64,000 bases of DNA from an uncultured bacterium (GCA_965370805.1 CBDUVZ010000002.1:706-64705), one strand, 5' to 3'; positions 8,098-58,377 are shown, numbered from the stretch's first letter. The notes: generated by a model not told the origin, from the sequence alone. A program made the numbers and translations.

Positions 8098-9173
8098 TCC
8101 TTTTGTTTCAGCACCGTCGCCGCCGCAATCACATGCTGCCACCTGAATCTGCGGAAAGCCTGCAGCAGACCGCCGGAACGCCCGATGAAGCGCACCGGTG
8201 CGCCCAGCGCCCACTGTCGGACCAGTTCGCGCCGCCAGAGCCGCCGGTAACGGGACTCGGGCCATCCCAACGGCCGGTTCAGCCGTTCCTGCATCCGACG
8301 CCTCCGCCCGGTGTCGTCACGCCTCAAAACATGACCCTCCTGCAGCAGAGGCACCACCGCAACGCGCTCCACGCCCGTTCTGCTCACTTCGCAGATGCCC
8401 ACACCTGTCTGCCGGGAAATACGGGGCCACGGCCGGCTCTCACGACCATTCAGGCCCCCGAACAGGAAATTCCCCAGGCTGTAGAAAATGCAGCCATTCT
8501 CCCAGCGCTCGTACCCCTGCAGGCAGTGCGAATGGTGACCTGCGACCACCCTGGCCCCGGCCTCGACCAGTCGCCTTGCGAGACGCCGCTGTGCCGTGTG
8601 CGGGTATCTGACGAACTCGGTTCCCCAGTGCAGGTTCACCACCACGATATCGACCCGGGCCGCAAGCTCACGCACCTCGGCAACCGCCCGCTCTTCATCA
8701 AGGAAGTTAACATGCACCCCGGCCCGGTCCGGGATACACGGATTGGTCTCCCGGCCGACGTAATTGAGCAGGCCGAAAGTCAGCCCTTGCCGGCTGAGCA
8801 CCAGCGGTCGTTGCGCCGCGGCCGCACTCACCGAGGCCCCGAGGAATCCGAGCCCGTGCTCCTCGAAGAACCGGACTGTATTCCCGAAGCCCTGCTCCAG
8901 GCAATCGTACGCGTGGTTGTTGGCCATGAGCCCGACGTCGAGTCGAAGCGGAAGAATGCAGGTCGCGGCATCGGCAGTAGTGCATACCCGCGGCTGCTTC
9001 AGCACGTTCATTCCGCCGTCGCCCCAGAGCGGCGACTCCCAGTTCCCGACCCGAAGAGCACATTCTCCCAGATGCGAAGCGACTTCGGCCATGTTGCCGG
9101 TCAACGCCGGGTGGTACTGCGGGTCGCAGAAAAGCCCGTTGAGACTGATATCACCCACGAACTGGAGTGTCAC
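8079..9173 (-). CDS. CapA-family protein (PGA-capsule-type metallophosphoesterase-like)
   Basis: CapA-like sequence (FVGDISLNG ... VVNLHWGTEF ... AGHHSHCLQG). Start set at GTG 9173 (VTLQFVGD) with GGAGGG 5 nt upstream. The longer ATG ORF overlaps the upstream gene by 100 nt. Confidence 0.7.
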   Translation of the reverse strand: MTLQFVGDISLNGLFCDPQYHPALTGNMAEVASHLGECALRVGNWESPLWGDGGMNVLKQPRVCTTADAATCILPLRLDVGLMANNHAYDCLEQGFGNTVRFFEEHGLGFLGASVSAAAAQRPLVLSRQGLTFGLLNYVGRETNPCIPDRAGVHVNFLDEERAVAEVRELAARVDIVVVNLHWGTEFVRYPHTAQRRLARRLVEAGARVVAGHHSHCLQGYERWENGCIFYSLGNFLFGGLNGRESRPWPRISRQTGVGICEVSRTGVERVAVVPLLQEGHVLRRDDTGRRRRMQERLNRPLGWPESRYRRLWRRELVRQWALGAPVRFIGRSGGLLQAFRRFRWQHVIAAATVLKQKEIPNAK

Positions 9174-43827: not shown

Positions 43828-46494
43828 TTAGCGTTGAATGACTATCCTGGCGGACTTGGCGGTTGATTCGTTTCGGATGAAGTAGACGCCGGATCTGAGA
43901 TGCCGGATGTCATTCGGGCCCGGCAGAAGGTCCATTACCTTCCGGCCGGAGATGTCGAGCAAAGACAATGCCGAATGCCGAGTGTCGAATGACGAATGCG
44001 GAAGAAGAAGTACGTGGCGCACGATGGTTGCGGTCAAGGGTCGGCGGATTGTAGCCACCGGCTTGTCTTCGGTTCCGACGTAGTATTCCACCCGGTACAC
44101 CGGGTAGACCGCGAGGTTGCCGGCAAACGGGGTGCCGAGCCCGAGGTTGTTGCTGGTCGCGGCCTGGGTTTCGAGCGGGACCGCGCAGAGGAAGTTCTCG
44201 CCCATCCAGAGCGTGTCCGTGCCGAAGGACCAGTCCCACTGCCACTGGATCGAGTCCGTGCCCTGGCCGGATGTCACCTGGGTCCATTCCCAGGCCTGGT
44301 GCGCGGTCTGGACCTGGACTATAGCGCCGAGCATCCGGGTCGAGTTCGGGGTCCAGCGGTTCACCGCTTTGCCGGTAATGACCGGGTCGCGCATCTGGGT
44401 CGTGTCGCCGGGCAGATGGTCGAACTCGGCTTTGACCCCGGTGTTCCACACCCGCACCGGGTTGATTACCGTTACACTGCTGTCGTTGGAGTTCGCGCAG
44501 TAAATCCTGTTGGTCACCGGGTTCACCGCAATCGCGTACGGCGCATTTCCTGCCGGCACGAGAACCGTGCTGTTCGTGGCTCCGTCGATCACCATTACGC
44601 TGTCGCTGCCGTAGTTCGCCACGTACACTTTGTTGGTTATCGGGTTCACCGCAATCGCGTACGGTGCGTCTCCTGCCAGCACGAAGGTGGTGCTGTTCGT
44701 TGCCCCGTCAATCACGGTCAGATCGTCGCTGCCGCCGTTCGCCACGTACACTTTGTTGGTGACCGGGTTCACCGCCACGGCCCGTGGTGCGTCCCCGACC
44801 GGCACGAGCGTGGTGTCGTTGGTAGTTCCGTCAATCACGGTCACGTTATCGCTCTGGAAGTTCGCGCAGTAGATCCTGTTGGTCACCGGGTTCACCGCAA
44901 TCGCGTACGGTTCCGTCCCGGCTGGCACGAGCAAGGTGTCGTTCGTGACACCATCGATGACCGTTACGTTATCACTCCAACTGTTCGCTACGTACACCTT
45001 GTTGGTCGCCGGGTTCACCGCCACCGCACGGGGCATGGTTCCGGTTGGAACCAGAGTCGTATCGAGGGTCGCTCCGTCAATCACGGTCACATTGCCGCTG
45101 CTGCCGTTCGCTACGTACACCTTGTTCGTTGCCGGGTTCACCGCAACGGCCCATGGCCCGTCCCCGGCCGGCACGAGCGTGGTGTCCATCGTGACACCAT
45201 CGATTACTGTCACGTTGTCACTCAGGGAATTCGGCACGTACGCCCGGTTCGTCACCGGGTTCACCGCAATCGCGCGCGGGTTGTTTCCGGCCGGCACGAG
45301 CGTGGTGTCGCCGGTGGCGCAGTCGATTACGGTTACGTTGTTGCTCGTCACGTTCACCACGTAGGTCTCGTTTGTCACCGGGTTCACCGCCAGTGCCCGT
45401 GGCCGGGCCAGCGTACGTACTCTCGTGGTGCTGTACGTGATACCGTCGATCACGGTCACGTTGTCGCTGCCGCTGTTTACCACGTACACTTTGTTGGTCA
45501 CCGGGTTCACCGCAACCGCGCACGGTTCGGTTCCAACCGGCAGAAGCGTGGTGTCGTTTGTCGCTCCGTCGATCACCGTCACATTGTCGCCGTGCCAGTT
45601 CGTCAGGTACACTTTGATGGTCACCGGGATCACCGCAACCGCGCAGGGCTGGTTTGCCGTCGGGACGAGCGCAGTGTCGTTCGTGGCCCCGTCAATCACC
45701 GTCACATTGCTGCTGTAAAAGTTCGCGCAGTAAATCCGGTTCGTTACCGGGTTCACCGCAATCGCATACGGTCCATTTTTTGCCCGCACGGTTGTTGTGT
45801 TGTTGGTGATTCCGTCAATCACCGTCACGTTGTGGTCGTTGAGATTCGCCACGTAAATCCTGTTGGTCACCGGGTTCACCGCCACGGCCCAGGGTTTGTC
45901 GCCGACCGGCACGAACGTGGTGTCGTTGGTTGCCCCGTCAATCACGGTTACGTTGTCGCTGCCGCTGTTTACCACGTACACTTTGTCGGTCACCGGGTTC
46001 ACCGCAATCGCGCGCGGCTCTGTTCCGACCGGCACGAGCGTGGTGTCGTTCGTGGCCCCGTCGATTACCGTTACATTGTTGCTGCTGTCATTCGCCACGT
46101 ACACCTTGTTGGTCACCGGGTTCACCGCCACGGCGTGCGGCGCGTCTCCGGCCGGCACGAGCGTAGTGTCGTTCGTCGCTCCGTCAATCACCGTTACGTT
46201 GTCGCTGCCGCGGTTCGCCACGTACACCTTGTTGGTCACCGGGTTCACCGCAACCGCATACGGCTCTAATCCTGCCCGCACGCGGATGGTGCTGTTCGTA
46301 GCCCCGTCAATCACCGTTACGTCGTTGCTGCCCGCGTTCACCACGTACACCTTGTTGGTCACCGGGTTCACCGCAACCGCCTGCGGGTTTTCTCTGACAT
46401 TGACGGTCGCCGTAACCCAGTCCGCCGTTGCCGGCGCTGCCGTGATTGCCAGCAGCACCAGGGCTGCGGTCAGGGCATGTCTTACGTTCTGCAT
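43828..46494 (-). CDS. Large YVTN-family beta-propeller repeat protein (~17 repeats) with T9SS C-terminal sorting domain
   Basis: Signal peptide MQNVRHALTAALVLLAITAAPATA. 41-aa repeats VNPVTNKVYVAN..SDNVTVIDGATNDTTLVPAG..P.AVA. CTD ...GVYFIRNESTAKSARIVIQR. Confidence 0.8.
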   Translation of the reverse strand: MQNVRHALTAALVLLAITAAPATADWVTATVNVRENPQAVAVNPVTNKVYVVNAGSNDVTVIDGATNSTIRVRAGLEPYAVAVNPVTNKVYVANRGSDNVTVIDGATNDTTLVPAGDAPHAVAVNPVTNKVYVANDSSNNVTVIDGATNDTTLVPVGTEPRAIAVNPVTDKVYVVNSGSDNVTVIDGATNDTTFVPVGDKPWAVAVNPVTNRIYVANLNDHNVTVIDGITNNTTTVRAKNGPYAIAVNPVTNRIYCANFYSSNVTVIDGATNDTALVPTANQPCAVAVIPVTIKVYLTNWHGDNVTVIDGATNDTTLLPVGTEPCAVAVNPVTNKVYVVNSGSDNVTVIDGITYSTTRVRTLARPRALAVNPVTNETYVVNVTSNNVTVIDCATGDTTLVPAGNNPRAIAVNPVTNRAYVPNSLSDNVTVIDGVTMDTTLVPAGDGPWAVAVNPATNKVYVANGSSGNVTVIDGATLDTTLVPTGTMPRAVAVNPATNKVYVANSWSDNVTVIDGVTNDTLLVPAGTEPYAIAVNPVTNRIYCANFQSDNVTVIDGTTNDTTLVPVGDAPRAVAVNPVTNKVYVANGGSDDLTVIDGATNSTTFVLAGDAPYAIAVNPITNKVYVANYGSDSVMVIDGATNSTVLVPAGNAPYAIAVNPVTNRIYCANSNDSSVTVINPVRVWNTGVKAEFDHLPGDTTQMRDPVITGKAVNRWTPNSTRMLGAIVQVQTAHQAWEWTQVTSGQGTDSIQWQWDWSFGTDTLWMGENFLCAVPLETQAATSNNLGLGTPFAGNLAVYPVYRVEYYVGTEDKPVATIRRPLTATIVRHVLLLPHSSFDTRHSALSLLDISGRKVMDLLPGPNDIRHLRSGVYFIRNESTAKSARIVIQR
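43966..44001. repeat. Heptanucleotide REP-like element, copy G, in frame inside the CTD
   Basis: caatgccgaatgccgagtgtcgaatgacgaatgcgg encodes HSSFDTRHSAL, replacing the EASGVKRGASCV segment of the paralog 42442-43818. Confidence 0.6.
44450..46400. repeat. Intragenic tandem array of ~16 near-identical ~123-bp units encoding the YVTN repeats
   Basis: Recurring strings such as gggttcaccgcaatcgcgtacgg and ccgtcaatcacggtcac at ~123-nt spacing, seen directly. Confidence 0.7.
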
Positions 46495-48506: not shown

Positions 48507-48781
48507 CGGCACAGTGCTGAGAATTCAGTTGCAGTTGCTGACCGGGAGGCGTCGGACGTGAGCCGGTACCTTCCGGGCAGTTTGCCCGTAGTCAGACCCG
48601 ATTTACCACAAAGACACCAAGACACTAGAGGAGTAGATCTCTCCGGACAGACTCTCCCTTTGTGCACTTCGTGCCTTTGTGTTTCGTTTTCTACCCCGGC
48701 GAGGTGCGTGACATGAGCGCCCTATGCCGGGGCGGTCGCCCCTGTTCGATAACCAGCAGCAGACAATCCAAAGGAGACAGT

Positions 48782-49906
48782 ATGAAAAGGGCGGTTCTGG
48801 CCGCGTTGCTCGCGGTCGTACTCGTTTCAGTCGGGCTTGCCCAGCCGGCCAAGGTGCCGGTGCTCAAAGTGGGCCATGTGGGTCATGACCATCAGTGCGC
48901 ACCCTATGTGGCCGCGCTGGCCGGTGAGGATTTCAAGGAGCTGTATGGTATCTGGTTCAAGGAGGTCCGTTACAAAGACCTGTACGAGCTGTACGACGGC
49001 GATGAGTTGATTGCCGAGATTGAGTTCTACAAGGCCGGCGGGGGATCGAAGATGCCGACGATGATGAGCCAGGGCGCGTTTGACGTCGGGCTCGGCGGTG
49101 TGGCCGCGGTGTCGTTCTTCGTGGACAAGGGCGCGCCGATGAGAATGATTGCGCCGCTCCATTCCAAAGGCGACATGCTGGTGGTGAAGCCGGACCTGGA
49201 TCTGGACTCGTGGGAGGAATTCGTCGAGTGGATCAAGTTCCAGGGCTGGACGGTTCCAATCGGGTACAAGAACCCGGTCGCGGTAGCCAAGCTGGTGTTC
49301 CAGCGGGCACTGGACGAGGCAGGCATTACCCATACCGGTGACAAGGCGAATACCGACGCCCAGGTTCTGCTGGTGAATATGAAGGGCGAGAAGAACCTGA
49401 TTCCGGGCTTGATGTCAGGACAGATCCAGGCGTACGTCTCCAACAACCCGTGGTGCGCGCTGGCCGAAGCCAAAGGCGTTGGCCATTGCGTGTGCGAACT
49501 GCACGACCTGCCGCCCGGGGTTTTCCGTAACCATCCGTGTTGCTGTGTCGCGGCAAATACCTCGGCGATGGAGGCGCATCCGGAGGAGATCGGCAAGTTC
49601 CTGGAGTTGATGATTGTCTCGACCCATTTCGTCAATACCGAGCGGGAGAAGGCAATCGAGTACGTGGCCCGGTGGATCGGGACAACGCCCGAGGTCGAGG
49701 CGATTTCGATGGCCACATCCGGGTACTCACTCGAGCCGGACGACGCTTTCTACAACGGCATGTGGGTGTGGTACGAGGAGATGGTCGGGATGGAGAAGAT
49801 TACCGACCAGTTGAAGGACAAGACCCGCGCGGAGTTCGAGAAGATGGTGTACGACTTCTCGCTGCTCGAAACCGCGCTCGAAGCCGCAGCCGAGAGAATC
49901 AAGTAG
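48782..49906 (+). CDS. ABC transporter periplasmic substrate-binding protein (NitT/TauT, NMT1/SsuA-like)
   Basis: Start at MKRAVLAALLAVVLVSVGLA after AAAGGAGA. SsuA/NMT1-like fold sequence. Unusual Cys cluster HCVCELHD...HPCCCVAAN. Confidence 0.8.
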   Translation: MKRAVLAALLAVVLVSVGLAQPAKVPVLKVGHVGHDHQCAPYVAALAGEDFKELYGIWFKEVRYKDLYELYDGDELIAEIEFYKAGGGSKMPTMMSQGAFDVGLGGVAAVSFFVDKGAPMRMIAPLHSKGDMLVVKPDLDLDSWEEFVEWIKFQGWTVPIGYKNPVAVAKLVFQRALDEAGITHTGDKANTDAQVLLVNMKGEKNLIPGLMSGQIQAYVSNNPWCALAEAKGVGHCVCELHDLPPGVFRNHPCCCVAANTSAMEAHPEEIGKFLELMIVSTHFVNTEREKAIEYVARWIGTTPEVEAISMATSGYSLEPDDAFYNGMWVWYEEMVGMEKITDQLKDKTRAEFEKMVYDFSLLETALEAAAERIK

Positions 49907-49909
49907 CTC

Positions 49910-50770
49910 GTGCCTCCGAATCCCGGTCCCAGGCAGGAGTTCGGCAGGAAGCTGGGCCGGATCGGCCTGGCTGTAGTCCTGCCGATTCTCCTGCTTGCGG
50001 TCTGGGAGTTCCTGGCAATCCGGCTTCACAACCCGTGGCTCCTGCCCCGCGTCGGCGCGGTGTTCGACCGGCTGATTCACCCGCTCGACAATGTGCTTGA
50101 AACCGGGTCCCTGTTGTACAACATCGCGGTTTCCGGGGTGCGGGTATTGATGGGTTTCACGCTTGCGACAATCGTCGCGGTGCCGCTCGGGTTGCTGATG
50201 GGCCGCATCAGGGTTGTGCGCCGGGTGGTCGGGCCGTTCGTCGAGATGTTCAGGCCTTTGTGCCCGATAGCGTGGCTGCCGTTCACGATGGCGGTGTTCA
50301 AGACCTACACAGTGGTGAACCTGTTCGGGGTGCGGTATTCGGATACCATCTTCGACACAATCCAGGTCGGGATGCTGTTCATCCTGTTCTACGGCGCGTT
50401 CTTCCCGATACTGCTGAACACTGTGGACGGTGTGCTCGGGGTCAGGGATGCGTACGTCGAGTCGGCGTTGACGCTCGGGGCAAAGCCGGGCCAGGTGTTC
50501 CGCAAGGTGGTGCTGCCCGCGGCCCTGCCTTCGATATTCACCGGCCTGAAAGTCGGGCTGGGCGTGGCGTGGATGGTGATTGTCGCGGCCGAGATGCTGC
50601 CGGGTTCGGATTCGGGTATCGGGTATCTGATCATCTACGCGTACGAACTGGCCGAGATGGACGTGCTGATTACCGGGATGATTCTCATCGGCCTGGTCGG
50701 GGCCCTGCTGTCCTGGGGCATCGGGTTGCTCGGGCGACCTTTCACCGGCTGGCAGGCCCTGGAGCGGTGA
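49910..50770 (+). CDS. ABC transporter permease (NitT/TauT family, BPD inner-membrane component)
   Basis: Six TM segments with an EAA-like loop region. GTG start 4 nt after the SBP stop. Confidence 0.85.
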   Translation: MPPNPGPRQEFGRKLGRIGLAVVLPILLLAVWEFLAIRLHNPWLLPRVGAVFDRLIHPLDNVLETGSLLYNIAVSGVRVLMGFTLATIVAVPLGLLMGRIRVVRRVVGPFVEMFRPLCPIAWLPFTMAVFKTYTVVNLFGVRYSDTIFDTIQVGMLFILFYGAFFPILLNTVDGVLGVRDAYVESALTLGAKPGQVFRKVVLPAALPSIFTGLKVGLGVAWMVIVAAEMLPGSDSGIGYLIIYAYELAEMDVLITGMILIGLVGALLSWGIGLLGRPFTGWQALER

Positions 50771-50784
50771 TAGACGAGGTGCGA

Positions 50785-51696
50785 ATGTCGACTGACAAGA
50801 GGAAAGGGTCCAAGGGTCCAAGGGTTCCAGGGTTCCAGGGTGAGTTGCGAGTGCCGAATGCGGGAATCAGGATTGAGAACCTCGGCAAGGTGTTCCAGGG
50901 CCGGGATGGCGGAAGTGTCGCCGCACTCGACGGCATCGACCTGGCAATCGAGCCGGGGAGCTTCACGTGTCTTGTCGGGCCGACCGGGTGCGGCAAGACT
51001 ACGCTGTTGCGGATTGTAGCCGGGCTGCTCATGCCGAGTTCCGGGATGGTAACGGTCGGCGAAAAGCCGGTGACCGGGCCGCGACAGAATACCGGGATGG
51101 TGTTCCAGCATTACTCGCTCTTCCCCTGGCGGAGCGTGCTCGACAACGTCGCGTTCGGACTGGAGATGCGCGGGACCGGGAAGCGCGAGCGGCATGCCCG
51201 GGCAAAGGAACTGCTGGATACGGTCGGGCTTGCGCGGTTTGCCCGGAGCCGGCCGTACGAGCTTTCGGGCGGGATGCAGCAGCGGGTGGCAATCGCGCGG
51301 TCCCTGGCGACCGACCCGGACCTGCTGTTGATGGACGAGCCGTTCGGGGCCCTGGACGAGCGCACGAGGCACCGGTTGCAGGACGAACTGCTGTCGGTCT
51401 GGGAGCGCACCGGCAAGACGGTCCTGTTCGTTACCCACAACATCGACGAAGCGGTCTACCTCGGGCAGCGGGTGGTAGTGATGGCGGACCGGCCCTCGCG
51501 GATTGCCGACGATTTTCCGGTTGGTATCGCGCGGCCGCGCGACCGGGTCGCACCGGAATTCGTCGAAGCGCTCTTACGGGTCCGGACTGTGCTGGAAGAA
51601 GTAATGAAAGAAAGCAGCAGGCAGACAGAGAAAACCAAAGGAGGAGAAGATGAAGAAAGGCCTGATACTGATGGCCATTCTTGCTGTGGCCGTTAG
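50785..51696 (+). CDS. ABC transporter ATP-binding protein (NitT/TauT family)
   Basis: Walker A GPTGCGKTT, signature LSGGMQQRVAIARSL and Walker B LLLMDEPFGALD. The N-terminal 22 codons translate a repeat element, so the true start may be GTG/TTG near 50845-50851. Confidence 0.85.
   Translation: MSTDKRKGSKGPRVPGFQGELRVPNAGIRIENLGKVFQGRDGGSVAALDGIDLAIEPGSFTCLVGPTGCGKTTLLRIVAGLLMPSSGMVTVGEKPVTGPRQNTGMVFQHYSLFPWRSVLDNVAFGLEMRGTGKRERHARAKELLDTVGLARFARSRPYELSGGMQQRVAIARSLATDPDLLLMDEPFGALDERTRHRLQDELLSVWERTGKTVLFVTHNIDEAVYLGQRVVVMADRPSRIADDFPVGIARPRDRVAPEFVEALLRVRTVLEEVMKESSRQTEKTKGGEDEERPDTDGHSCCGR
50806..50866. repeat. Short tandem repeats (GGGTCCAAG x2, GGGTTCCAG x2) fused to a heptamer REP-like unit, copy H
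   Basis: gggtccaagggtccaagggttccagggttccagggtgagttgcgagtgccgaatgcggg, seen directly. Confidence 0.6.
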
Positions 51697-52480
51697 CAGC
51701 GTATCCGCTTCGCCGCTGATCTGGCGCGGGGCATCCGTACTCAAGCCGATGCAGTTGATGGTCCTGGTGCCGAACGGGTACATGCAGACCGCGAAAGGGT
51801 ACGACTGGGACAACAGCGAGTGGGTGGAGCTCAACGACGCCGCGAAGACCACGAGCATCAAGTCGGTGCCCATGGTTGGACTTGGCTTGTTCAATGGCCT
51901 GGAACTCGGAGTCGTGGCCCCGCTGTACTCGAAGACCCAGGGCGACAACAGTTCGCTCGGCCTGGGCGATGCATTGCTCAAGGCGCGGTACGGGTTGCTG
52001 AAAGGCGAGTTGCTGCCCGTGAAGTTGACCCTGTCCGCAGCCGCGGTACTGCCGACCGCGCCCGAAGATGCCAATCCGGCGCTCGGCGACCGGACTCTGG
52101 ATTTCGGCCTCGGCGCCATTGCCCAGACCCAGAAGCTGGCCGGGTTCATCGGCCACCTGCGGCTCGGATACTGGCTGAACGGCAAGACTCCGGGTGAAGA
52201 AGGACAGAAACTGGGCAACATGTTCGAGTACGTGGCCAAGGTGGACTACAAATTCAACAAGAAGACCGGCGTGTTCCTCTCAATGGGCGGCATTATGCAG
52301 GCGGAAGGCGATGCCAACAAGGAGAAGGCTCGGCATGAGGCATGGGTCGGCGTGGTGTGGAAACCGATTCCGAAGCTGGCTGTCCGGCCCAAAGTCGGCG
52401 TGCCGCTTGAGTTTGCGTGCAAGGGCGGCTCGCTTCAGCCGTTCGATATCGGGCTCGATTTCTGGGTGACGCTGCCCTAG
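51650..52480 (+). CDS. Outer-membrane beta-barrel protein (MetA-pathway/transporter-like OMP family), signal peptide
   Basis: Signal peptide MKKGLILMAILAVAVSSVSA. Alternating amphipathic strands. C-terminal ...DFWVTLP. Confidence 0.55.
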   Translation: MKKGLILMAILAVAVSSVSASPLIWRGASVLKPMQLMVLVPNGYMQTAKGYDWDNSEWVELNDAAKTTSIKSVPMVGLGLFNGLELGVVAPLYSKTQGDNSSLGLGDALLKARYGLLKGELLPVKLTLSAAAVLPTAPEDANPALGDRTLDFGLGAIAQTQKLAGFIGHLRLGYWLNGKTPGEEGQKLGNMFEYVAKVDYKFNKKTGVFLSMGGIMQAEGDANKEKARHEAWVGVVWKPIPKLAVRPKVGVPLEFACKGGSLQPFDIGLDFWVTLP

Positions 52481-52497
52481 GAAAACGAGGTAGTCAT

Positions 52498-52770
52498 ATG
52501 GCTGATGCGTTTCAGGAGAACCTCGACCGGGTCAAGGCGGTTGCTGAGGACCACGGACATATTCTGAATCCGAATGAGATGCATCTGAATAAGATGCTCG
52601 AACGGATGGTCAAGAACTTCGAGCAGTTCGGGAAGTATTACTGCCCGTGCAAGCAGCATCATCCCTTAGACCCGGAACAGGATCCGTTTTGTCCGTGCCC
52701 GGAGATGGACGAAGAAGTGGTCGAAGACGGGCACTGCGAATGCTGGGTGTTTTTCAGAAAGGAGAAATAG
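52498..52770 (+). CDS. Ferredoxin:thioredoxin-reductase catalytic-subunit-like protein (FtrB-like, CPC...CPC...CHC)
   Basis: YYCPCKQHH...FCPCPE...GHCECWVF matches the FTR catalytic-chain Cys motif. Confidence 0.65.
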   Translation: MADAFQENLDRVKAVAEDHGHILNPNEMHLNKMLERMVKNFEQFGKYYCPCKQHHPLDPEQDPFCPCPEMDEEVVEDGHCECWVFFRKEK

Positions 52771-53174
52771 TGCAGATTCCGGAACAGGTGAAAGAGATGT
52801 TCGGCAATGGTCTCATGGTCTACCTTGCCACAGTTGATGAGAAATGCACGCCCAATGTTGTGCCGATGCTGCAGTACTGGTGGCTCAACGAAGACACCAT
52901 GGTGATCGGCGACCTGTTCATGAAGGCGACCAAGGCCAACATCAAGATCAACGGCAAGGCCTGTATCTCCGGCTGTGGGAAAGGCGGTGAAGCATACAAA
53001 CTGAAAGGGACCGCGACTTATGAGACCTCGGGGCCGGCTTACGACCTGGCCAACGGCAACCTGCACAAGAAGAAGCCGGACAAGAACTTCAAGGGCGCGG
53101 TTGTCATTAGATTCACCGAAGTCTATGATGCCTCGCGGGGACCCGAAGCCGGGGAACTGATAGCGAAGGCCTGA
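52770..53174 (+). CDS. Pyridoxamine-5'-phosphate-oxidase-like FMN-binding split-barrel protein
   Basis: GTG start overlapping the FtrB-like stop (TAGTG) after AAAGGAGA. VYLATVDEKCTPNVVPM... is PNPOx-like. Confidence 0.6.
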   Translation: MQIPEQVKEMFGNGLMVYLATVDEKCTPNVVPMLQYWWLNEDTMVIGDLFMKATKANIKINGKACISGCGKGGEAYKLKGTATYETSGPAYDLANGNLHKKKPDKNFKGAVVIRFTEVYDASRGPEAGELIAKA

Positions 53175-56973: not shown

Positions 56974-58377
56974 ATGAGGGTCGCGCTGGTCAAGCCGCCG
57001 GCGACCTACGCGGACTGGTACCACCGGCCGGTTCTGGGTCTATCTTACATCGCGGCGTGCATCGAAGCCAAGGGAATCGAGTGCCGGATTTTCGACGCCT
57101 ATTTCCGTTCTTGGTCCGAACCGGAACTCGTCAGCCGCGTGGTTGACTACCAACCTCACCTGGTTGGTCTGACTGCGATGACTCACGAGGTGAATGCCGC
57201 GGCGCGTATCGCGGGCCTGGTCAAGACGCAACTTGGCATCAGGACCGTTATCGGCGGGTGTCATGTCACCGCATTGCCAAGGCGGACTCTGGCCGAGTTC
57301 GATGCGTTCGACTTCGGGGTGTACGGCGAAGGAGAAAGGACGTTTCTTGAGTTGCTGCGGGTTCTGGATGCGGACGGCACCAAGGACCTCGAACGAATCA
57401 GAGGACTGGTATTCCGGGAGAGAGAGAACATCCGGGTCAATCCGGCTCGGGAATTCCTTAGTTCCGAGGAACTGGATGCCCTCCCCTGGCCCGCATTCCA
57501 CCAGTACTACGGCGACGATACCCGGGTGCTGGTCGGCAGGGACGACGAGTACGTAATGATGTCGGGCCGGGGATGCCCGTTCAATTGCGCCTTCTGCATG
57601 CGGGTGCTGGGCGGCAGGATGCGGCGCCGGTCGGCGGAAAGCATCTGCCGGGAGATGGAGTACGCCATCGAGCGGTACGGTGTGCATACCTTCGATTTCG
57701 AAGACGACACCATGTTGATTGACAACCAACCGACCCGGGAAATCCTGCAGTCAATGATCGACACCGGGCTTGCCGAACGGGTAAGATGGAGCGGAATGAT
57801 TCATGCCAGTTCGGCCCGGCCGGAACTGGTGGGATTAGCCCGACGGGCGGGATGTTTCCGGATGGCGATGGGGGTTGAGTCAGGTGACGACCGGATACTC
57901 AAGGCGATTCACAAGAACATCACTGTCGAAGAAGTGAAAGAAGCGGTTCGGGTCGTGAAGCGGGCCGGGATCCGGCTGATGGCTTTCTACATCCTCGGGC
58001 ATCCGGGCGAAACCCGAGAAACGGCAGAGCGAACGGTGAACCTGATGGCAGAGTTGAATGCCGATACGTCTGCAATCGGGTTGATGGTGCCGTATCCGGG
58101 CACGGAGATTCATTCGCTGGCTACGCGCGGTGAAGCCGGGTATCGACTGCTGACCGAGGATTGGGCCGAGTACGACAAGTACGGGGGCAGGGTTCTCGAG
58201 ATTGAGGGATTGCCCTGGGAGGAACTGGCAAAGATACAACGCCGGGCGCTGCTGCGTTTCTTTCTCAGAAACCTGAGGTTGCTGGACCTGCTGCGCTACC
58301 TGTGGAAGCGGAGGGCTGCCCTGAAATTCCTGGTCGGGAAGATGTTCACCCGGGCCAGGAGCAAGCCGGATGCTTGA
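56974..58377 (+). CDS. B12-binding domain-containing radical SAM protein
   Basis: N-terminal B12-binding region, then the CxxxCxxC radical-SAM motif GCPFNCAFC. Confidence 0.85.
   Translation: MRVALVKPPATYADWYHRPVLGLSYIAACIEAKGIECRIFDAYFRSWSEPELVSRVVDYQPHLVGLTAMTHEVNAAARIAGLVKTQLGIRTVIGGCHVTALPRRTLAEFDAFDFGVYGEGERTFLELLRVLDADGTKDLERIRGLVFRERENIRVNPAREFLSSEELDALPWPAFHQYYGDDTRVLVGRDDEYVMMSGRGCPFNCAFCMRVLGGRMRRRSAESICREMEYAIERYGVHTFDFEDDTMLIDNQPTREILQSMIDTGLAERVRWSGMIHASSARPELVGLARRAGCFRMAMGVESGDDRILKAIHKNITVEEVKEAVRVVKRAGIRLMAFYILGHPGETRETAERTVNLMAELNADTSAIGLMVPYPGTEIHSLATRGEAGYRLLTEDWAEYDKYGGRVLEIEGLPWEELAKIQRRALLRFFLRNLRLLDLLRYLWKRRAALKFLVGKMFTRARSKPDA

Follow-up and report, generated by a model that had tools for sequence, protein, structure and literature searches.

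Prokaryotes have no known transporter that is specific for selenium or takes it up with high affinity, as stated in a 2022 review, a review of May 2026 and an experimental study of 2024 (PMC9312934; PMC13188914; PMC11097638). The described transporters that come closest to the locus reported here are ATP-binding cassette (ABC) importers of the NitT/TauT type. One of them is the SAO transporter SaoX/SaoB-SaoP-SaoA of anaerobes, which is connected with selenium biology, possesses a solute-binding protein (SBP) with a Cys-Cys motif and further Cys residues at the cleft, and adjoins double-cubane proteins of the HGD-D family; these proteins are almost confined to SelD-containing genomes and it was suggested that they may process selenium compounds (Haft and Gwadz, 2022, bioRxiv 10.1101/2022.07.06.499078). 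Further relatives in SBP fold and permease family are the systems SsuABC, TauABC and NrtABC-CmpABC. Here, we describe an operon of six co-directional open reading frames (ORFs) on the + strand, at positions 48782-53174 of a 64,000-nucleotide stretch of DNA from an uncultured bacterium (GCA_965370805.1 CBDUVZ010000002.1:706-64705; the whole stretch is called the window). It encodes an SBP, a permease, an ATPase, an outer-membrane protein (OMP), a protein similar to FtrB and a protein of the PNPOx fold, and sequence comparison suggests that it is, on balance, probably a selenium acquisition and reduction system that feeds the selenophosphate synthetase SelD.

The connection to selenium emerges from related loci. 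For 80 genome loci with SBP homologues, which span WOR-3, Stahlbacteria, LCP-89, Calditrichota, Fibrobacterota-like genomes, Planctomycetota, Lentisphaerota and Elusimicrobiota, the sequences were fetched and all ORFs were clustered. A selD, selA, selB or yedF gene is located within 9 kb in 34/80 loci and in 24 of the 44 loci that comprise at least 12 kb of sequence, compared to 2-3% expected for a random locus, a rough estimate from four genes, a span of 18 kb and a genome of ~3 Mb. The linkage takes at least six different arrangements. In two WOR-3 loci (L006, L009) the SBP gene is directly preceded by selD, in L002, L007 and L010 yedF and selD follow downstream of the transporter, in Planctomycetota the order is OMP-SBP-permease-ATPase-PNPOx-SelD with a divergent selA-selB pair, and in Stahlbacteria-like loci selA-selB come after the OMP gene; others include a fused FtrB-SelD gene upstream of the SBP gene and the order selA-selB-ftrB upstream. 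The neighbouring SelD proteins pass the cut-off of the selD equivalog model and carry selenocysteine (Sec) or Cys at the canonical site. In L002, the proteins encoded downstream of the operon score 205 bits for YedF (TIGR03527, cut-off 110) and 353 bits for SelD (TIGR00476, cut-off 125). YedE and YedF were likewise recognized as candidate selenium trafficking genes by synteny, with YedE belonging to a different membrane-protein family. As lineages that are not related repeatedly show selD in synteny with these genes or fused to them, the gene family belongs to a neighbourhood of selenium utilisation, which does not hold for the window itself.

When TGA codons were read through in all loci, no in-frame TGA was found in the genes for the SBP, the permease, the OMP, the FtrB-like and the PNPOx-fold proteins, with U appearing only at gene ends; the transporter and accessory proteins were therefore ruled out as selenoproteins and the linkage to sel genes is not explained by local selenoproteins. 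The same read-through detected no selenoprotein other than SelD in the related loci. The SelD proteins of Planctomycetota (L046 12265-13875, L050 12295-13884, L083 8511-10079 and others), whose genes directly follow those of the transporter and the PNPOx-fold protein, are extended at the N-terminus by ~45 Cys-rich aa (RRKRV..LGHCxCD..PCPC..CxCAGE) and end in a CMD/AhpD-like domain that contains a CxxC motif. Homology of this extension (HCxCD...PCPC...CxC) to FtrB was considered and rejected, as hhalign gave a probability of 7% and only the GHCxC motif is common to both.

A second line of evidence is that FtrB-like proteins are fused to SelD. A word-index search with the FtrB-like sequence gave only 6 matches, and metagenome contigs were instead scanned with an FtrB-like profile, which yielded 79 loci. 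In L040 (2470-3852) and L044 (7528-8835), the ORFs for the FtrB-like protein and for SelD stand in one frame with a single TGA in between. The junction, with ILETITCPG before and ASKLS after the stop codon, corresponds to the Gly-rich Sec/Cys-x-x-Lys loop of SelD (TCPG-U-ASK) in a CxxU arrangement, and a conserved 7-bp hairpin with GU in the loop, similar to a selenocysteine insertion sequence, lies 18 nt downstream of the fusion UGA. Such a single-TGA in-frame junction is present in 14 of the 79 loci, of which L085 is apparently the same contig as L040; further fusion loci are L089, L099, L107, L108, L124, L127, L137, L147-L150, L152 and L161, and the distinct ones, including L040 and L044, number about 15, several of them near-identical. 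In 19 of the 79 loci the FtrB-like gene is followed by selD within 400 nt, SelD-like, SelA or SelB is encoded in 34 and the transporter in 21, and 18 loci, mostly short contigs, show neither sel genes nor transporter. Gene callers split the fusion into two ORFs. SelD fusions with NADH-dehydrogenase-like and NifS-like partners have been described, and the partners were understood as modules that deliver or reduce selenium (PMC4561486); the new fusion likewise places a redox or selenium-delivery module N-terminal to SelD, and the FtrB-like partner is neither among the fusions of that study nor was it found in literature searches. With selD inside the transporter operon and an FtrB-like protein fused to SelD, the accessory genes are tied to selenium activation and not to catabolism. 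The preliminary description of this DNA had postulated an uptake system for a redox-active or sulfur-containing substrate; the uptake system stands, while the substrate class was too vague, with sel synteny and FtrB-SelD fusions pointing to selenium.

The gene set itself is conserved over large phylogenetic distances. The OMP gene is syntenic with the transporter in 58/80 related loci; in WOR-3-like loci it follows the ATPase gene, and in Planctomycetota it precedes the SBP gene. The FtrB-like gene is syntenic in 20/80 loci, where it follows the OMP gene, lies between the ATPase and OMP genes or directly precedes the SBP gene. The PNPOx-fold gene is found in 13/80 loci, at 45-83% identity overall and at about 53-63% for Planctomycetota and Calditrichota, and the same transporter was present in all four contexts of PNPOx-fold homologues that were examined (4/4). 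Searches that set out from FtrB-like or PNPOx-fold homologues thus lead to the same picture as those that set out from the SBP. All three downstream genes are thus syntenic with the transporter across WOR-3, Stahlbacteria, Calditrichota, Planctomycetota and others, the opposite of which the preliminary description had named as evidence against a functional unit. Apart from SelA, SelB, SelD and YedF for selenium utilisation, recurrent neighbours comprise reductase-like proteins, i.e., HGD-D family proteins (with the double-cubane reductase family as nearest NCBIfam family) and a BcrAD-type activase, and proteins of methyl transfer, i.e., a class I methyltransferase (Methyltransf_11), a corrinoid protein (B12-binding), URO-D methyltransferases of the MtaA/CmuA type and RACo. 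In L002, the closest long relative with an SBP 81% identical to that of the window, these methyl-transfer and reductase-like genes lie directly upstream of the transporter. None of the HGD-D, BcrAD, methyltransferase, corrinoid protein, URO-D and RACo genes searched for was found in the 64-kb window. The occurrence of HGD-D proteins beside related transporters agrees with the reported tie between double-cubane proteins and SelD (Haft and Gwadz, 2022). The composition of the methyl-transfer genes matches that of SdmABC from Methanococcus, a corrinoid protein with URO-D-like methyltransferases that mobilises dimethylselenide in an organism for which dimethyl diselenide was shown to be used at lower concentrations than selenite (PMC11097638). 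In contrast to SdmABC, the bacterial loci add RACo, the class I methyltransferase and the HGD-D/BcrAD proteins, and the Sdm-like genes are absent from the window.

The SBP (48782-49906, +, 374 aa) possesses a signal peptide and belongs to the NMT1_2 or NitT/TauT class (Pfam NMT1_2, 76 bits). Its AlphaFold2 model (pLDDT 90.8) shows the NrtA/CmpA/SsuA fold and the closest solved structures in Foldseek are the CmpBCD regulatory domain (9UAI), the Zn-bound protein 3UN6 from S. aureus, SsuA, CmpA and NrtA, all with at most 16% identity. In the curated NCBIfam models, the SBP stays far below the cut-offs of SsuA, SaoX and NrtA. Its best match is SaoX and it reaches 47.6 bits for SsuA_fam (TIGR01728, cut-off 163.5), which places it outside the TauA/SsuA equivalogs; it does not cluster with SsuA or TauA. 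The genes ssuD, ssuE, tauD and cys are absent from the recurrent neighbour clusters of the 80 loci, and ssuD, ssuE and tauD also from the window. The operon therefore differs from SsuABC, TauABC and NrtABC-CmpABC in failing the curated cut-offs, in its His/Cys pocket and in the lack of genes for sulfonate or nitrate utilisation, and the earlier statement that it is not a textbook sulfonate/nitrate transporter is borne out.

The pocket of the SBP carries the signature HDH...H...D...HPCC. Across 78 homologues, H35-D36-H37, H127 (73/78), D131 and H251-P252-C253-C254 are conserved in 73-78, i.e., HPCC and four His residues are kept, and N221 is counted among the invariant residues. The unusual Cys cluster noted earlier consists of the strings HCVCELHD and HPCCCVAAN, which are present as quoted; most of the quoted Cys residues, however, are no family features and only H251-P-C253-C254 is invariant in this cluster, as C255 is found in 59/78 and C225 in 44/78 homologues, both cysteines of HCVC occur in about 32/78 and C39 is unconserved. 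3UN6, at Foldseek rank 2, has the highest target-normalised TM-score among the top matches (0.85, at 14% identity), and it aligns with the SBP in the His residues and in the CC motif, which lies on the second hinge strand. With this signature the cleft is reminiscent of the Zn(Cys2His1-2) site that was described for 3UN6-like SBPs (PMC13592312), which suggests a putative metal site. CmpA provides a precedent for metal-assisted anion binding. Compared to the 3UN6-like SBPs encoded beside carbon monoxide dehydrogenases (CODHs) of clade B, the SBP of the window is ~70 residues longer, no CODH is encoded nearby and the other partner genes differ. The CCCFC motif of THI5 had together with the NMT1 fold prompted the idea of thiamine-precursor uptake of the ThiY/THI5 type. 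This was rejected: Rfam revealed no TPP or other riboswitch, no thiamine genes lie nearby and the structural similarity of the SBP to THI5 and ThiY is no more than distant.

The permease (49910-50770, +; Pfam BPD_transp_1) scores below the cut-offs of the NCBIfam models for SaoP, NtrB and TauC. Its residue C118 in an RPxCPIAWxP motif is kept in 67/70 and M229 in 64/70 homologues, and in the AAEM motif the gating position is occupied by Met and not by the Sec or Cys of the SAO permease. The conserved HPCC motif and four His residues of the SBP together with the near-invariant permease Cys would be compatible with a thiophilic design of the importer. The ATPase (50785-51696, +, best start ATG 50785) gives 118 bits for ABC_tran. 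For the SAO models SaoX, SaoP and SaoA (NF040735, NF040733, NF040729), the three proteins reach 48 of 300, 140 of 295 and 238 of 360 bits required, respectively, so that they fall outside the SAO families. In comparison to SAO, the transporter proteins described here lack Sec, have Met instead of Sec for gating and are supplemented by the outer-membrane barrel, the FtrB-like protein, the small flavoprotein and selD synteny.

The FtrB-like protein (52498-52770, +, 90 aa) scores 42.2 bits for FeThRed_B (PF02943, cut-off 22) and among solved structures it is best matched by 4TPU and 7PWE, which supports the earlier proposal of a partner resembling ferredoxin-dependent disulfide reductases. The catalytic subunit of ferredoxin:thioredoxin reductase (FTRc) and the archaeal ferredoxin:disulfide reductase (FDR; 4TPU) have the same FeThRed_B fold and likewise three CxC motifs; those of FTR hold a [4Fe-4S] cluster beside a redox disulfide. 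Its layout is CPC-x15-CPC-x12-CEC with a His before the third motif; the CPC-CPC-CHC pattern of the preliminary description has to be corrected, as the third motif reads H-C-E-C in the window and is a variable C-x-C in the family (x = F/Y/E/H/R). The six Cys residues are invariant in 13 aligned homologues, and the protein putatively adopts the FTR catalytic-subunit fold with a [4Fe-4S] cluster and a redox disulfide. The canonical FTR signature CPC-x16-CPC-x8-CHC, which includes the catalytic His, is not present. In contrast to FTRc and FDR, the protein stands alone with 90 aa, has no recognisable variable subunit or rubredoxin domain, shows CEC instead of CHC and differs in spacing; no variable-subunit partner is recognisable among the operon genes. 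Toward plant and cyanobacterial FTRc chains the similarity is at an E-value of about 0.5, and unlike these chains the FtrB-like protein is encoded in a transporter operon and has SelD-fused paralogues. The NCBIfam model for an FtrB family double-selenoprotein (NF041072) yields 31.6 bits at a cut-off of 160, and the gene contains no in-frame TGA, which places it outside this family.

The PNPOx-fold protein (52770-53174, +, GTG start, 134 aa) matches PNPOx_N with 33.8 bits, and in NCBIfam its sole match is a weak one to an F420-class family. The AlphaFold2 model (pLDDT 93) has HupZ and the flavin mononucleotide (FMN)-binding protein of Desulfovibrio vulgaris as best structural matches, at 20-24% identity, and both also lead in the sequence comparison. 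The earlier label PNPOx-like is thus correct for the fold and does not extend to PdxH; the protein is a minimal split barrel of the HupZ/FMN-binding-protein type and its fold suggests that it binds flavin, with FMN or haem as candidate cofactors. The subfamily is narrow: a word-index search retrieved 75 homologues, all with at least 51% identity.

The OMP (51650-52480, +) has a visible N-terminal signal sequence and a predicted barrel, and it belongs to the Phenol_MetA_deg or COG4313-like class with 25.9 bits (PF13557 gathering cut-off 22). This assignment and the conserved position next to the transporter across phyla agree with the dedicated outer-membrane channel that had been proposed. In L081 (11211-12566), one of the four contexts of PNPOx-fold homologues, a barrel of the Alginate_exp type follows the ATPase instead of the Phenol_MetA_deg type, and the replacement by another barrel type argues for a functional requirement of an outer-membrane channel. 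Large AhpC-TSA/thioredoxin-like surface proteins are encoded upstream in L081, and other loci encode Omp28-like lipoproteins with a thioredoxin motif (WCGYC; cluster C37); both hint at an extracytoplasmic redox step. In Planctomycetota (L046-L080), 1-3 tandem copies of a secreted or membrane-anchored protein of ~174 aa precede the OMP (cluster C20, e.g., L050 6546-7070), for which no Pfam match was found, and in Stahlbacteria-like loci the FtrB-like gene is preceded by a different small lipoprotein (C39).

Taking these observations together, a pathway can be proposed. A small selenium compound would cross the outer membrane via the dedicated barrel and be captured in the periplasm by the SBP, whose His/Asp/Cys-Cys cleft would probably bind it in a metal-assisted or thiol-mediated manner. 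The permease and ATPase, of NitT/TauT type by fold and family, would pump the compound into the cytoplasm. There, the FtrB-like [4Fe-4S]/disulfide protein may reduce Se-S or Se-Se bonds, e.g., those of a selenotrisulfide, of a diselenide or of a selenenylsulfide on a carrier or on SelD, with electrons that may come from the adjacent small flavoprotein or from ferredoxin. This reduction would yield selenide or selenol for SelD. The imported species may be selenite, selenide or polyselenide, or else a methylated selenide, of which dimethyl diselenide is an example. A dedicated outer-membrane barrel would suit methylated selenides, as would the corrinoid module of Sdm type that related loci carry, and this demethylation module together with the double-cubane-like reductases adjoining related transporters could process organoselenium. 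In its most complete form, the proposal would describe a pathway dedicated to the import and reduction of selenium, the first of its kind in prokaryotes, composed of an outer-membrane channel, an importer whose SBP captures a selenium species at a metal/Cys-Cys site and a hitherto unrecognised FTR-like [4Fe-4S] selenenylsulfide or diselenide reductase, either alone or fused to a Sec-containing SelD, that hands selenide to SelD, with co-regulation of the operon and an organoselenium-processing operon by a common structured leader in one WOR-3 subclade; this extended version is tentative, and we regard its chance of being right as slightly short of even.

Several points weigh against an assignment to selenium. 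The barrel class suggests, by what is reportedly known from work on the COG4313-type protein Pput2725, a hydrophobic solute, which would speak against selenite and fits methylated selenides. All support is guilt by association. The window contains no selD, selA, selB, yedF or tRNA-Sec gene, and indeed no tRNA gene at all, and about half of the long related loci have no sel gene within 9 kb. The FtrB-like gene of the window is an orthologue of the transporter-embedded copy, to which the SelD-fused copy is a paralogue with about 45-50% identity. Many loci carry methyltransferase, corrinoid and HGD-D genes, which makes a catabolic substrate possible, and SBPs with the same Cys-Cys/His site are also known from the SAO locus and from the vicinity of clade B CODHs, settings for which different substrates were put forward (PMC13592312; Haft and Gwadz, 2022).

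The catabolic genes lead to an importer similar to SAO, which would take up an organometal(loid) or a methylated chalcogen or metalloid for anaerobic catabolism, with the FtrB-like protein and the flavoprotein as redox helpers and the sel genes nearby through selenium-dependent metabolism. The best NCBIfam matches of the three transporter proteins are SaoX, SaoP and SaoA, the transporter is flanked in many loci by genes for Methyltransf_11, B12-binding, URO-D-like, RACo, HGD-D and BcrAD proteins, and organometallic substrates were proposed for Cys/Sec-lined SBPs (Haft and Gwadz, 2022). However, every Sao score remains far below its cut-off, the catabolic genes are absent from the window, and of the nine-gene SAO locus the families SaoL (MerB-like), SaoE, SaoC, SaoT and SaoD do not appear among the annotated recurrent neighbours, although no search was aimed at them; membership in the SAO system itself was rejected on these grounds. 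As selD lies within the transporter operon, FtrB is fused to SelD and SelD is the only selenoprotein detected, we consider the SAO-like explanation unlikely. That the transporter is a generic one and the three downstream genes are unrelated passengers is contradicted by genes that overlap or are translationally coupled and by cross-phylum synteny in several gene orders, and it is very improbable.

Given that sulfur and selenium chemistry are alike, an import of reduced sulfur such as sulfide or polysulfide, thiosulfate, a thiol or a sulfonate, followed by reduction of a disulfide or persulfide by the FtrB-like protein, would be consistent with the NitT/TauT context, the weak SsuA_fam and TauC matches and the Cys-rich pocket, and a SelD-like family of archaea is reportedly linked to sulfur metabolism (PMC4210487). 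The SelD proteins at the related loci, however, pass the equivalog cut-off, have Sec or Cys at the canonical site and are accompanied by selA, selB and yedF; with SsuA, TauA and TauC far below cut-off and ssuD, ssuE, tauD and cys genes absent from the recurrent neighbours, sulfur uptake appears as a rather improbable solution, a little more so than the SAO-like one. The His/Cys site could also bind the transported ion itself, in which case the operon would import a transition metal (Zn, Ni or Co): 3UN6 was crystallised with Zn, its CC and His residues align with those of the SBP, and Ni import was proposed for homologous transporters beside clade B CODHs (PMC6344411). Ni has on the other hand been argued against for the 3UN6-like class (PMC13592312). 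A tetrahedral Cys2His site would fit a structural or co-ligand metal better than releasable cargo, no maturation genes for metalloenzymes are syntenic, and sel synteny and FtrB-SelD fusions would stay unexplained; metal import is thus quite improbable, below uptake of sulfur.

The gene set provides a concrete candidate for dedicated selenium uptake in prokaryotes and a candidate function for three families, i.e., the HDH/HPCC SBPs, the stand-alone FTR-like protein and the narrow family of split-barrel flavoproteins. Two related questions might profit from it as well, namely what the Cys-Cys/His SBPs of the SAO locus and of clade B CODH neighbourhoods bind, and why double-cubane proteins are tied to SelD. 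SBP-dependent ABC importers as such are known; what appears to be new is the specificity of this one, its FTR-like partner and the fusion of FtrB and SelD into a selenoprotein, and no model in NCBIfam release 20 claims the proteins of the operon.

Upstream of the SBP gene lies a candidate cis-regulatory leader element of 56 nt (48691-48746, +; 36-91 nt upstream of the SBP start) with the sequence CCCCGGCGAGGTGCGTGACATGAGCGCCCTATGCCGGGGCGGTCGCCCC. The element is also located upstream of the SBP gene in L001 (8910-8965), L002, L009 (6803-6858) and L087 (283-338), with a weak match in L011. Its core, GAGGTG.GT.AC.TGA, is invariant. Of its two helices, the 3' hairpin overlaps in part with the preceding one and shows one compensatory pair (GGGGCG/CGCCCC to GGGACG/CGTCCC). 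L002 has two copies (72-127 and 8901-8956), one of which is upstream of the methyltransferase/corrinoid operon, and the element could be a shared cis-regulator of both operons, either riboswitch-like or protein-binding. No match was found in Rfam, and the idea of a widespread RNA family was rejected, as a covariance model finds the element in one WOR-3 subclade only. The whole leader of ~250 nt (48530-48790, +) shows block conservation with L001 and L002, a comparison of three close sequences only, and a long hairpin (ACCACAAAGACAC...GTGCCTTTGTG) is predicted, whose 3' pairing would cover the Shine-Dalgarno sequence.

The six-gene order with near-overlapping boundaries given in the preliminary description was confirmed as one operon by ORFs, Pfam matches and direct reading of the junctions. 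The SBP and permease genes are separated by 3 nt and the permease and ATPase genes by 14 nt, the ATPase and OMP genes overlap by 47 nt, 17 nt lie between the OMP and FtrB-like genes, and the FtrB-like and PNPOx-fold genes overlap by 1 nt (TAGTG). Shine-Dalgarno-like motifs precede the ATPase ATG at 50785 (GACGAGG), the OMP ATG at 51650 (GGAGGAG) and the PNPOx-fold gene (AAGGAG), and a Shine-Dalgarno-like sequence also precedes the FtrB-like start. A simple scan for promoters and terminators gave nothing decisive. From the 3' end of the operon to the next gene start there are 212 nt, and the flanking genes are unrelated, encoding beta-propeller and FG-GAP repeat proteins (at least one with a sorting tail of the type IX secretion system), a B12-binding radical SAM protein and ABC exporters; tight packing, this distance and the unrelated flanks indicate a self-contained six-gene operon. 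The nearest relatives are metagenome-assembled genomes of candidate division WOR-3, and the source organism is probably a diderm anaerobe of this division.

The ATPase frame enters the OMP gene (51650-51696); its counterpart in the close relative L002 ends 1 nt ahead of the OMP start. By this comparison, the window ATPase carries a C-terminal extension (…GGEDEERPDTDGHSCCGR) and apparently the ancestral stop was lost. The B12-binding radical SAM protein (56974-58377, +) is encoded 3.8 kb downstream of the operon and does not recur as a conserved neighbour in the related loci. At 43828-46494 (-), the window encodes an 888-aa protein with about 20 tandem YVTN/NHL-like beta-propeller repeats of ~40 residues (NPVTNKVYVAN..SDNVTVIDGATNDTT), which give rise to long spurious ORFs on the opposite strand and to a strong AT skew.

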